This document shows, one piece after another, positions 32,336-48,497 of a DNA stretch of 54,394 bases (positions within the stretch are counted from its first letter, which is position 1; each line of letters begins with the position of its first letter). Source of the DNA: a virus (lineage: Duplodnaviria > Heunggongvirae > Uroviricota > Caudoviricetes); the IMG/VR virus record IMGVR_UViG_2541047847_000004. One strand, 5' to 3'. Below the pieces are notes generated by a model. That model ran no database searches and was not told the DNA's origin. It saw nothing but the letters and a program-made list of their open reading frames with translations. The position numbers were made by a program, and so were the translations under genes.

Positions 32336-32889
32336 GCGTTAGTTTCTCCACAACCAGAAGCAATCGACGCCACGACGCCCGGAGCTGCACACTCGCGGGC
32401 GTCATTACTTTCTGAAACGCAAAAAATTTTGTAGACAAGTGCTGCATGCTCCTGCAGCTTCGAAATTGAGAGGTACAGCTCGTCGTTAATTGCTGTCTTC
32501 TCATGCGGTTCCACTACACCGTCTTCGATTGCCGAACGAATCTGTTTTGAATAACTGCCGATCTGTTCAATGACTTCCAGTAAACGCTGGTTAATATCGG
32601 CATTGTCCACATCCTCGACGTCAGGAAGAGACACAAAGACGCCATTTGCAGACTGCGCCACAGCGTCAGCAATGAAGTGAGTGCCACCAGCACGTTGTAA
32701 AATCATTGCCCATCCCAGCGGGAAAATCTGATCGCCATCGGCACGAAGGCGGTTAAATAATGCGTTCTCTGTTACATCCAGCCACTCAGCAGCTTCAGCG
32801 TAACCCCCCGGCAACGCCGCGATAGTTTTTCTGACAGCTTTCACGTACCACTCAGGCTGTTTTTCCACTTTCCAGTGATGATTACCCAC
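32332..32889 (-). CDS. Early regulatory-region protein (YmfL-like)
   Basis: 185 aa directly downstream of cro-like gene. Confidence 0.5.
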
Positions 32890-33142
32890 GGCTTACCTCC
32901 TGTTCCTGTGGTTTAAACCCATTCTGGTTTTGGCTAGATTGAAAACGTGCCGGATAAAGAATCTGCATTTCGCTGATTTCACCCTTAAAAAAATTGGCCA
33001 GACGTTCTGCAAGATCGATAGATGGAATTTGTTCCAGTCTTTCAATACGACTCAGCGTCGCTGGATTGACCTGAACGCCAGCAGCAACATGCTGCAAAGT
33101 AAATCCGTGCGCCTTACGCACATTCCGTAATGGTGATTGCAT
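32882..33142 (-). CDS. Cro-like HTH regulator (XRE family)
   Basis: 86 aa, HTH GFTLQHVAAGVQVNPATLSRIE; divergent from cI. Confidence 0.7.
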   Translation of the reverse strand: MQSPLRNVRKAHGFTLQHVAAGVQVNPATLSRIERLEQIPSIDLAERLANFFKGEISEMQILYPARFQSSQNQNGFKPQEQEVSRG

Positions 33143-33239
33143 ATGACCTCCACATATTGCGTGATAAGCATATTATTTCACGCAAATATTTTGCGCAAGT
33201 TGATTTGCTTAACGCGCAATAAAGAAATGTAATAAACGC
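33143..33239. promoter_or_regulatory. Genetic switch region with operator-like inverted repeats and divergent promoters
   Basis: TTGCGTGA-N13-TCACGCAA (33157-33185) and TTGCGC-N17-GCGCAA (33191-33219) between cro and cI. Confidence 0.55.
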
Positions 33240-33932
33240 ATGAACATAGGAAACCGAGTCAGACAACTTCGCCAGGCGAAGAACATGAAAATCGCCGATC
33301 TCGCTGAAGCAATAGGAGTGGATGCGGCGAATATCTCACGCCTGGAAACAGGTAAGCAGAAACAATTCACTGAACAAGCCCTGAGTAATATTGCCAGGAG
33401 CTTAGGTGTTGATATTGCTGATCTCTTTACCTCAGACTTCAAAAGTAATACTGTATGTAAAAACAGTATTAGTGAGGATGTTGCGCAGGTGAAGGATGTA
33501 TTCCGTATTGAAATGCTGGATGTCAGTGCCAGTGCGGGAAATGGCCTTATCCAGGGCGGTGATGTCATTGATGTGATTCATGCCATTGAATACAGAACTG
33601 ATAATGCTGTATCGATGTTTGGCGGACGGCCAGCCAATCACATTAAAGTTATCAACGTTCGTGGGGACAGTATGTGTCCAACCATTGAGCCAGGAGATCT
33701 CATCTTCGTTGATGTCAGTATCAATCAGTTTGATGGAGATGGTATCTATGTATTTGGTTTTGATGATAAAATTTATGTCAAACGACTGCAAATGATACCT
33801 GACAAACTACTGGTGATTTCTGATAACCAGATTTACCGTGAATGGGGAATTACCAGCGAAAATGAACACCGGTTTATGGTCTTTGGAAAGGTCTTAATCA
33901 GCCAGTCACAAACCCTTAAGCGACACAATTAA
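33240..33932 (+). CDS. CI-like repressor (HTH + S24 LexA-type autopeptidase)
   Basis: 230 aa; N-terminal HTH, C-terminal VRGDSMCPT...KR Ser/Lys dyad. Confidence 0.85.
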   Translation: MNIGNRVRQLRQAKNMKIADLAEAIGVDAANISRLETGKQKQFTEQALSNIARSLGVDIADLFTSDFKSNTVCKNSISEDVAQVKDVFRIEMLDVSASAGNGLIQGGDVIDVIHAIEYRTDNAVSMFGGRPANHIKVINVRGDSMCPTIEPGDLIFVDVSINQFDGDGIYVFGFDDKIYVKRLQMIPDKLLVISDNQIYREWGITSENEHRFMVFGKVLISQSQTLKRHN

Positions 33933-33952
33933 CCCTTACCTCCTCATCAATT

Positions 33953-33976
33953 AGCCACCCAAAGGTGGCTTTTCAT
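33953..33976 (+). terminator. Intrinsic terminator after cI
   Basis: agccacc-caa-ggtggct followed by tttcatt. Confidence 0.55.
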
Positions 33977-33986
33977 TACCCTTTAA

Positions 33987-34045
33987 ATTGCATATCTCGC
34001 AACAAAAACACTTGCATAATGCGCAACTTCATTTTATCTTTCTTT
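33987..34045 (+). promoter_or_regulatory. Second operator/promoter region (PL-like)
   Basis: TTGCATATCTCGCAA and TTGCATAATGCGCAA resemble the cro/cI operator half-sites; TTGCAT...TTATCT spaced like -35/-10. Confidence 0.35.
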
Positions 34046-34634
34046 CCAGACAAACAAACAAGGTACTAACAAAATTTGGTTGTAACACGGCGTATGGCAC
34101 ATGCGTCGTTAGCGGTCTGGGGACGTTAAAGGGGACAATCCACTCCTTGCTCGGGCAAACAAACCAGGTAGCCGGAATGTGCAAGTCAATGATGATGCTG
34201 ATAAGACGCCTAACCAGCGTGGCGATTCGGTTTGACGCCTGGGAAGAGACCAGGGTGCAACGATGAGGGCATTTATGGAGCCGCGACAAAGTGTGGTGCT
34301 GTAACTGGCTAAGTGCTCTCAGCGTTGTGGTAATCCGCGAAATGGCGCGGCGGTAAGTATGGCGGGGTTACTCTTTCCCCGTTGAGGACACCGGATTGTC
34401 AGGTTGACCATACGCCTGAGTGACAAGCCCACCACAACAGCCACTGCTTTGGCGGTACCAGTTTGTACACTTGCTTCCGGCTGGTACCGCTCTTTTTACA
34501 AAACAGAGAAGAGCATCACCGGACGACGGGCTCATAACCCAATCCATCCGGGCGGCTGCCACCGCAGGTGTTCTTCTCTGTTTTGTGGAGAAACCAACCG
34601 ACCTTGCAGGGTCGATATGATGAGGAGCAGCAAA

Positions 34635-34997
34635 ATGGCTAGCGAACGCAGTACTGATGTGCAGGCATTTATCGGGGAGCTGGACGGCGGCGTATTTGAA
34701 ACCAAAATCGGCGCAGTTCTCAGTGAAGTCGCTTCCGGTGTGATGAACACAAAAACCAAAGGTAAGGTCTCACTCAACCTGGAAATCGAACCATTTGATG
34801 AGAACCGTGTGAAAATCAAACACAAACTCTCATATGTTCGCCCGACTAACCGCGGGAAAATTTCCGAAGAAGACACCACCGAAACGCCGATGTATGTCAA
34901 TCGCGGTGGTCGCCTGACTATTCTGCAGGAAGACCAGGGACAATTACTGACTCTTGCCGGTGAACCTGACGGAAAACTACGCGCAGCAGGTCATTAA
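34635..34997 (+). CDS. YfdP-like hypothetical protein
   Basis: 120 aa from ATG 34635 (AGGAG 7 nt upstream); long TTG-initiated upstream extension in the track rejected. Confidence 0.45.
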   Translation: MASERSTDVQAFIGELDGGVFETKIGAVLSEVASGVMNTKTKGKVSLNLEIEPFDENRVKIKHKLSYVRPTNRGKISEEDTTETPMYVNRGGRLTILQEDQGQLLTLAGEPDGKLRAAGH

Positions 34998-48099: not shown

Positions 48100-48497
48100 T
48101 GATGCCCGCTCTGCAAAAACGCCCTTTTTCTGGCTTGCCTTTTTCCGGCATTTGCGGATATAGTTTTTCCGCTGCCGCAAAATCGGCAGCCGGGCGTGGA
48201 AACCCGAGCAATTCACAGGCGACATATGACGCGCCATGCGTCTTTTTTTGTGTCGCAATCAACGCCACAGAGCGCCAGATTATGGTGTGGTGTGTGGTCA
48301 GTCGTGCAGATGGCATTCCGTGCATCCTGCCCGCGTCCGCTCATTATGCCGCAGAGTCAATGGTAGCTCAGGCGGGGCAGCCTCCGGGCTGGCCGGTATC
48401 CTGTGAAGCCGGTATTTCCACCCCCGTCTGGGCTATCGCCATCGAGCGTGGAAACTCCGGCGATAGCGTTATTTGCTATTCACAGGAGGCTGCCATC

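Follow-up and report, generated by a model that had tools for sequence, protein, structure and literature searches.

What is encoded in almost 600 nucleotides (nt) that separate a predicted early promoter from the first gene of its operon and hold no apparent gene of their own? The question is raised by positions 34046 to 34634 (+ strand) of the virus record IMGVR_UViG_2541047847_000004. The whole stretch of 54,394 nt that we analysed, hereafter the window, is an SfV/mEp460-like lambdoid prophage of Escherichia coli, and the interval lies between a predicted early left promoter (PL) and the gene yfdP. A preliminary description had regarded it as one long structured leader, which might act as an antitermination RNA of the HK022 put type or as a terminated regulatory RNA. 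The view of a single leader gave way on analysis: the interval is pieced together from RNA modules, at least five of which are conserved separately, and the modules are conserved structured RNA on the + strand. We think it probable that the leader is the head of a repressor-controlled PL unit and encodes a polycistronic non-coding RNA precursor, as opposed to a simple 5' untranslated region. What is apparently new here is its first part, module A, as an unannotated and widespread phage RNA, the DicF-type locus itself being already known.

The mosaic make-up is seen in a sensitive search of phage records, in which different phages matched different sub-intervals of the leader. Positions 34074-34330 were matched in P1, P7, D6, SJ46, phiV10/TL-2011b, SPN1S, a Klebsiella phage and mEp390; 34324-34446 in the PPompW phages and in a record named as an Actinobacillus phage; and 34450-34640 in SfV, SfII and ST64B. 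Because the sub-intervals have different phage relatives, the pieces were analysed separately. Folded as a whole and compared with shuffled sequences, 34040-34640 had z = -4.13 for the + strand, and for the - strand the value was -2.78. The leader had been called GC-rich. At 53.3% it does stand above the window average of 49.4% and the adjacent cI region (38-43%), although the excess over the window is only modest. The earlier impression that it lacks a convincing open reading frame (ORF) was borne out: the five ORFs of 64-92 amino acids (aa) in the leader had zero Pfam matches, no frame is conserved and none stays open throughout the homologues of the conserved core, and the RefSeq/PGAP annotation of a 99.9% identical genome has no gene from the repressor to yfdP. 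The first well-supported start codon is indeed that of yfdP, ATG at 34635 with the Shine-Dalgarno sequence AGGAG at 34623-34627 (+ strand), and PGAP uses the same ATG. An Rfam 15 search, run over the whole window at gathering thresholds and over 33900-34700 at E <= 10, returned only three chance-level matches in the latter region (E 1.6-6.7). No Rfam family covered module A, module B or the stem S2 in the related loci either. ARAGORN and Rfam found no transfer RNA (tRNA) or transfer-messenger RNA gene in the window.

Module A is a pseudoknotted RNA core of about 170 nt (34088-34254, + strand), defined by covariation. The model comprises four helices and two pseudoknots. Helix H1 joins 34088-34094 to 34102-34108, and its loop GCACA (34097-34101) pairs with UGUGC (34178-34182) as pseudoknot 1. 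H2 (34116-19 with 34165-68) encloses variable hairpins and runs into the near-invariant 19-mer GGUAGCCGGAAUGUGCAAG (34167-34185). H5 joins 34206-09 to 34217-20, AACC (34212-15) pairs with GGUU (34229-32) as pseudoknot 2, and H6 (34238-42 with 34250-54) closes on the loop GAAGAGA. Among 46 representatives of less than 93% identity, 97.3% of the cells were paired under this model and 12 pairs had changed on both sides. None of 500 shuffles reached the real value, and slid controls gave 23-51%. When only changes on both sides were counted, pseudoknot 2 covaried between CACC/GGUG (C-G, 75 sequences) and AACC/GGUU (A-U, 23 sequences); H1 likewise covaries (G-C in 19, A-U in 27). RNAalifold on a broad alignment favoured the invariant GCACA/UGUGC pairing over H1. 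Since H1 covaries, we hold both pairings to be real, the former as a pseudoknot. Changes from G-C to G-U are frequent in module A and on the opposite strand would be C-A mismatches; because these wobble changes fit the + strand alone, the RNA was assigned to that strand.

A search of IMG/VR with the 19-mer GGTAGCCGGAATGTGCAAG recovered at least 120 loci, and over 250 nt these comprised 106 distinct variants. The 19-mer was also exact in 144 of 150 copies fetched through another segment, and this independent retrieval argues that its conservation is no artefact of the search. The window has a single copy: the covariance model of module A matched once, at 34069-34262 with 143.5 bits, and the 19-mer matched once with up to 3 mismatches allowed. 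A literature search, whose reach did not extend to word-only accounts in older dicF or P1 papers, found the 19-mer in no paper. Judged by Rfam, genome annotation and the searchable literature, module A is apparently an undescribed phage RNA.

It is by no means rare. Module A occurred in 1833 of 5426 complete E. coli genomes, about a third, and was unannotated in 39 of the 40 E. coli matches listed; among species-representative genomes it was found only in genera of the Enterobacteriaceae. Two metagenome contigs labelled Oscillospiraceae / Bacillota (L247 and L259) carry the exact 19-mer and are probably mis-binned enterobacterial phage DNA. The covariance model had no match in the HK022, HK639, Qin, PPompW, ST64B and SfII loci. 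In 78 of 149 loci module A lies downstream of a same-strand cI/S24 repressor ORF, at a median distance of 149 nt, and the genes that follow it vary among these repressor-linked loci. It comes after the repressor gene in mEp390, as it does in the window, where the core begins about 40 nt past the predicted PL start. A same-strand tRNA abuts it in 45 of 129 loci, either tRNA-Ile2 some 15 nt before the core, as in P1-like loci, or tRNA-Arg(UCU) directly after the stem S1. In P1 the space from trnI to ban, for which the very detailed P1 record annotates nothing, is taken up by module A, and in epsilon15-like phages module A stands just upstream of tRNA-Arg, in the non-coding gap that separates the connector operon from the terminase operon. 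Relative to the tRNAs and genes beside it, its orientation is always sense. Some epsilon15-like loci and the mEp390-like ones (L008, L009, L035, L036, L074 and L097) have, in place of S1 after module A, another conserved 3' domain, …CGCUAAGCAUC…GUGCUUAGCGGGACUGGAAGAGUUACCACUUGGAGACGGUCC…, which resembles another structured cassette.

S1 is a long irregular stem (CAACGAUGAGGGCA...UGCUCUCAGCGUUG) that folds around a variable insert at 34258-34327 (+ strand; -28.8 kcal/mol, z = -3.06). Epsilon15-like phages have the same stem between module A and tRNA-Arg (z = -5.57), and the K-12 Qin prophage has a counterpart at 2173-2258 of its locus L135 (z = -3.67). The position 190 nt upstream of the DicF 3' end in K-12 falls in the 3' strand of this equivalent stem, and the 5' end of the 190-nt form of DicF needs ribonuclease (RNase) III (bioRxiv 10.1101/2023.04.14.536235). 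By homology, S1 is a candidate RNase III site between module A and the next cassette. The 3' strand of S1 (CGUUG) overlaps the closing strand of module B, GUUGUGGU, so that 34323-34331 is claimed both by 34258-34262 and by 34431-34438. Because the two pairings exclude each other, module B could close only after S1 had been opened or cut.

Module B (34324-34438, + strand), recognized by homology and covariation, corresponds to the 5' body of a DicF-type precursor. Its closing stem pairs GUUGUGGU (34324-31) with ACCACAAC (34431-38) and encloses the hairpin CCGCG-AAAUGG-CGCGG (34335-50), a stem of GUAUGG (34357-62) with CCAUAC (34408-13), a variable hairpin (34364-80) and a pseudoknot between GGAUUGUCA (34393-34401) and UGACAAGCC (34421-29). 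Module B is about 88% identical to the stretch directly 5' of dicF in K-12 Qin and the PPompW phages, and the 'dicF-like region' of P1, right after Pban, is module B plus a DicF-type hairpin. Across 34 sequences 94.6% of cells were paired and 10 pairs had changed on both sides, a value reached by none of 500 shuffles. In all 133 collected loci module B was followed by a hairpin and U-tract. The 5' arm of that hairpin begins (U)UGGCGGU..CAGUU, its loop and 5' flank are variable, and the types seen were canonical DicF, those of the window and of P1, and at least six more. The record that names an Actinobacillus host (L132; PP818812.1, 'Actinobacillus phage vB_Apl-pPE4') has genes for DicA, YdaT, Kil and exonuclease VIII and a module B that shares 84.5% identity with that of E. 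coli; the phage seems to be a lambdoid one of the E. coli type and not one of Pasteurellaceae.

In the window the DicF position is taken by a cassette at 34439-34497 (+ strand) that consists of a short linker, a hairpin and a U-tract (34493-34497). The preliminary description had placed a hairpin and T-run at 34453-34496, where cggtaccag (34453-34461) pairs with ctggtaccg (34481-34489) over a 19-nt loop. We found the stem to be even longer, with 11 pairs (34451-34461 with 34481-34491), followed by CUCUUUUU ending at 34497. Its folding energy is -21.2 kcal/mol (z = -3.76; 0 of 200 shuffles as stable), and 34451-34497 has the anatomy of an intrinsic terminator inside the operon. A generic terminator scan missed it because the scan was limited to loops of 3-8 nt and the loop here, with 19, is unusually large. 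The idea of a terminated regulatory RNA gains support from homology, in that the hairpin occupies the position of dicF, follows the precursor body and shares UUUGGCGGUAYCAGUUUKUAC with DicF. It retains UUUGGCGGUACCAGUUUGUAC, and the DicF 5' part and the ftsZ-pairing ACUCCG are gone. The Rfam DicF model RF00039 had no match at E <= 10 in 33900-34700; the same search scored 76.7 bits on the dicF of K-12 and of the PPompW phages. As judged from sequence, the 3' half of the leader is a new DicF-type family member whose seed differs. Invariant AGCCGGAA in module A (34170-34177) has perfect 8-nt complementarity to UUCCGGCU in the loop and 3' arm of the hairpin (34475-34482). As it is missing from the other hairpin types, this match is probably due to chance.

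We looked for targets of the predicted small RNA. Of the DicF segment complementary to the ftsZ ribosome-binding site, CAGUUUUACUCCG, the window hairpin keeps CAGUUU alone, and ACUCCG is replaced. In a crude duplex test with the ftsZ leader, by which DicF itself gave a fraction of 0.17, 0.58 of the shuffles were at least as stable as the window RNA. Targeting of ftsZ by the window RNA was thus unsupported by this method. The motif CACAACA, the GcvB R1-seed target consensus that AgvB uses, is present at 34433-34439, just 5' of the hairpin; it occurs in several module B variants and is absent from the canonical Qin dicF loci. The idea of a GcvB sponge was considered on this account and set aside, as the predicted duplex of GcvB with the window RNA was no better than with shuffled sequence.

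Beyond the terminator lies S2 (34493-34592, + strand), delimited by folding and covariation. The 15-bp stem that had been noticed between 34498-34512 and 34572-34586 is real and is the core of a hairpin of about 25 base pairs (bp) with a conserved internal three-way part (-51.0 kcal/mol, z = -8.25; 0 of 200 shuffles as stable). The base of S2 pairs the terminator U-tract with GGAGAA. In 14 diverged copies, that of ST64B included, five pairs were kept through changes on both sides, so that covariation supports a conserved structure in S2 too. S2 and S1 have the motif AAGAGCAU...GUGCUCUU...GUUGUGG in common, and one locus is a direct intermediate form; K-12 has a long-range stem right after dicF, in the place equivalent to that of S2. 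A small hairpin (34599-34604 with 34609-34614, + strand) ends 9 nt before the yfdP Shine-Dalgarno sequence. Its fold is not significant (z = -0.17), yet SfII and other loci retain such a hairpin although its sequence differs there, and it may stabilise the 5' end of a processed yfdP messenger RNA (mRNA).

The modules recur in a shared arrangement. A DicF-type hairpin was found within 600 nt downstream of module A in 77 of 115 distinct loci, with none upstream and none on the other strand. This census used the sequence pattern GGCGGY...RCCGYY+UUUU, as a generic hairpin finder matched the reverse complement nearly as often. The slot between S1 and the hairpin is held by tRNA-Arg(UCU) in epsilon15-like phages and by module B in the window. 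From the census, the occupancy of this slot and the stems S1, S2 and their K-12 counterparts, a recurring plan is drawn, in which a promoter is followed by module A, a long stem, either a tRNA or module B, a variable hairpin/terminator, another long stem and finally the protein genes.

In the window, the promoter at the head of this plan is predicted beyond the repressor gene. The cI-type S24 repressor gene (33240-33932, + strand) faces a cro-like gene on the opposite strand (32882-33142, -) and ymfL/cII-like genes. It is followed by an intrinsic terminator at 33953-33970 (+ strand), found by the terminator scan as a 7-bp stem and TTTTC; the homologous site of SfII carries a terminator annotation. 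This terminator is the upstream limit of the early left unit. The predicted left operator and promoter (OL/PL) region at 33988-34040 (+ strand) combines operator-like repeats with a candidate promoter. Two exact repeats TTGCAT-N4-YGCGCAA lie at 33988-34002 and 34012-34026, and the interval between cI and cro holds a third (33205-33219) that differs by one mismatch. One of the two exact repeats overlaps the candidate PL promoter, read from the sequence as the -35 element TTGCAT (34012-17), a 17-nt spacer and the -10 element TATCTT (34035-40) on the + strand. A TTGCGT-17-TATCTT arrangement also stands ahead of module A in unrelated loci with other immunity regions, and similarity to phages of different immunity types begins only at about 34068. 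From the promoter arrangement, the operator-like repeats and this onset of similarity, transcription is predicted to start at about 34047.

On these grounds we propose how the leader may work, with processing steps modelled on the homologous dicBF operon of Qin, for which they were demonstrated by experiment. There the dicBp transcript gives rise to both the 53-nt and the 190-nt forms of DicF, RNase E is needed for the 5' end of the 53-nt form, and RNA of module B plus DicF accumulates as a stable species in K-12 (bioRxiv 10.1101/2023.04.14.536235). Transcription from about 34047 would yield, in turn, module A, S1, module B and the short variable hairpin with its U-tract. A cut by RNase III in S1 would free module A on one side and, on the other, an RNA of about 170 nt that joins module B to the hairpin and corresponds to the 190-nt form of DicF; from this RNA, RNase E would trim off module B to leave an Hfq-type small RNA of about 50 nt. 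The targets of this RNA should differ from those of DicF, as the ftsZ-pairing segment is replaced. The hairpin and U-tract would terminate part of the transcripts at 34497, and the remainder would read into yfdP. Polymerases that read through would transcribe S2, an RNase III-type stem that also pairs the U-tract, and its cleavage would set the 3' end of the small RNA and leave the yfdP-yfdQ-yfdR mRNA with another 5' end, headed by a small protective hairpin. Module A would be released as a discrete stable RNA and would bind a conserved host component early after induction or infection. This is the most likely role of module A to judge from its anatomy, since it abuts tRNAs or RNase III-type stems, precedes varied genes and has near-invariant single-stranded segments.

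Several points weigh against the proposal of a non-coding RNA precursor. The candidate promoter is weak relative to the consensus, and a generic scan made no call there. We infer the promoter, the processing sites and the stable products in this prophage from their likeness to other loci: S1 is matched to RNase III through the length arithmetic of the K-12 species and homology, and S2 is a candidate RNase III site in read-through transcripts by analogy. No target of the small RNA was identified by pairing with ftsZ or GcvB, both of which stayed at shuffle level. The usual position of module A, right after PL, fits a cis-acting role equally well, and early left expression past an 11-bp terminator is unexplained unless the terminator is leaky or antitermination operates.

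The last two points lead to the explanation that the preliminary description had offered alongside a regulatory RNA, namely RNA-based antitermination. Nascent module A, module B or both would act in cis, like put, by making polymerase resist the terminator at 34451-34497 and later ones. An N-less phage could in this way express its early left operon. No N-like gene is apparent, as had been said, and YfdP, the product of the first gene, is not rich in arginine. In 78 of 149 loci it is module A that stands at the nutL/putL position, and some loci have no more than about 10 nt between the -10 element and its start. In the window it likewise comes after the predicted PL with an intrinsic terminator downstream, every context has genes past the DicF-type terminator that need read-through, and unpaired segments that hardly vary point to a conserved host machine as binding partner. 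A put-like working of these modules is therefore possible. Membership in the put family itself is unsupported. We read HK022 putL and putR from the genome, took the HK639 putL-like RNA from the annotation of its record, and used as family features the conserved GAACGGC...UCGG...GGCG..UCAGGA.GA...CAAU. A hidden Markov model (HMM) of the three RNAs had no match in the window, blastn-short and nhmmer with putL and putR found only chance 9-12-mers there (the 9-mers CAUGCGUCG and GCGCGGCGG shared with putL have E = 15 each), and conversely the put sites were matched neither by HMMs of S2 and the two modules nor by the covariance model of module A. Each module occurs just once in the window, there is one copy per phage, and a second, putR-like site was not found in the window, which is not strictly required, as HK639 too has one annotated site. 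The contexts also argue against such a role, since the modules are not always upstream of terminators: Qin and the first P1 terminator are preceded by module B only, the SfII and ST64B leaders have no module A, and P1 has its module A 2.3 kb downstream of the promoter-proximal terminator. Moreover, small units of two genes, such as the module A-tRNA units of epsilon15-like phages, often join module A directly to tRNA genes, and antitermination would have little to act on there. On balance, we regard antitermination as the function of these modules as unlikely.

A riboswitch or attenuator, in which an aptamer in module A or B decides whether the 34451-34497 terminator forms, appears very unlikely. 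Both modules are pseudoknotted with highly conserved unpaired nucleotides, much as aptamers are, module B always lies directly before the terminator hairpin, and its closing stem cannot form while the 3' strand of S1 is paired within S1. A switch needs a conserved alternative pairing, however, and the hairpin and its linker to module B vary freely. Over 190 nt separate module A from the terminator, and what often follows module A is a tRNA and no expression platform, zero riboswitch families were matched in Rfam, and RNA of module B plus DicF accumulates stably in K-12. The blocks stand at mosaic junctions and are common to otherwise unrelated phages, as would be expected of recombination linkers or remnants of mobile elements that work, if at all, as DNA. 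Such an origin without RNA function is highly improbable in view of compensatory changes that preserve pairing in nine helices or more across module A, module B and S2, wobble pairs that are consistent with the + strand alone, the constant sense orientation to neighbouring tRNAs and genes, and DicF-type terminators that are found downstream and on the same strand only. A small protein gene would have to be the 92-aa (+), 86-aa (-), 64-aa (-) or 66-aa (+) ORF, or an extension of YfdP from TTG 34404. Some phage records do annotate hypothetical proteins, for example mEp460_036/037 and cdtI gp40. In addition to the PGAP and Pfam results given above, in several homologues each of the six frames is interrupted by stops in the conserved core, and the variable parts are hairpins with insertions and deletions that are not multiples of three, which makes this explanation scarcely credible.

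Comparison with known systems places the probable RNA precursor closest to the dicF locus. DicF is among the oldest known bacterial small RNAs and is treated as a single 53-nt gene of a cryptic prophage. The Qin locus and the window have in common module B (homologous to about 130 nt upstream of dicF), a long stem ahead of it, in the place where the 190-nt species has the 5' end that depends on RNase III, a hairpin and U-tract beginning UUUGGCGGUAYCAGUU, a second long stem after the terminator, and their place inside a repressor-controlled early operon with protein genes downstream. They differ in that the window has neither the 24-nt DicF 5' part nor the ACUCCG segment, ydfABC is missing upstream, its 3' arm is different, yfdP and not dicB is the downstream gene, and module A precedes in the window and is absent from Qin. 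Long imperfect hairpins also separate units of early transcripts in the lambda N leader and at the T7 early RNase III sites. Like S2, the lambda site closely precedes the ribosome-binding site of the first PL gene; in sequence these sites are unrelated to S1 and S2, which are candidate cleavage sites. Stable structured RNAs beside phage tRNA genes are known as T4 species 1 and 2 RNAs and as GOLLD and ROOL, of which the latter two are present in Rfam. They resemble module A in standing head-to-tail with tRNA genes, with ends definable by tRNA-processing enzymes, whereas their size and sequence are unrelated to it and no Rfam match was obtained here. The put RNAs have about 70 nt and two stem-loops (PMC9378689). 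The HK022 and HK639 loci share with the window a structured RNA at the start of the PL operon, no visible N gene and terminators downstream; module A, in contrast, has about 170 nt and two pseudoknots and is also fused to tRNA genes in P1 and epsilon15-like phages. AgvB and AsxR, anti-small RNAs of prophages in enterohaemorrhagic E. coli, are likewise short RNAs with a conserved terminator module and a variable seed. They form convergent pairs at the PR' moron site (PMC4104026). Identity with them was rejected, since the location differs and the models RF02702 and RF02703 had no match.

Read in this way, the dicF locus becomes one version of a cassette system in which the module B body is combined with interchangeable terminator hairpins that carry different seeds. 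If so, phages would swap small-RNA specificities as they swap genes. Module A is about 170 nt of constrained RNA, unannotated even in the well-studied P1 and usually the first part of the PL transcript. Being so conserved and so early, it is a direct candidate for a new phage-host interaction, and it bears on how N-less lambdoid phages achieve early left expression past internal terminators. Tentatively, one may go further and join two ideas: that module A is a new class of phage RNA acting on a conserved host machine, and that it belongs to a modular 'non-coding RNA operon' of which dicF is a remnant. This joint reading is possible but doubtful. Module A may then be an RNA-polymerase-modifying antiterminator unrelated to put, or a decoy or inhibitor of an RNA-processing or tRNA-targeting factor. 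The operon may consist of module A, an RNase III stem, a tRNA or module B, and a variable DicF-type hairpin. P1, epsilon15-like and lambdoid phages may share this array, with the classical dicF locus as a truncated remnant.

Elsewhere in the window, the Rfam search found three matches at gathering level within 48158-48443 (+ strand), namely c4-a1b1 at 48158-48210, isrK at 48171-48248 and C4 antisense RNA at 48356-48443. Together they make up an immI antisense-RNA system of the P1/P7 type within this lambdoid prophage, and it presumably controls an antirepressor.

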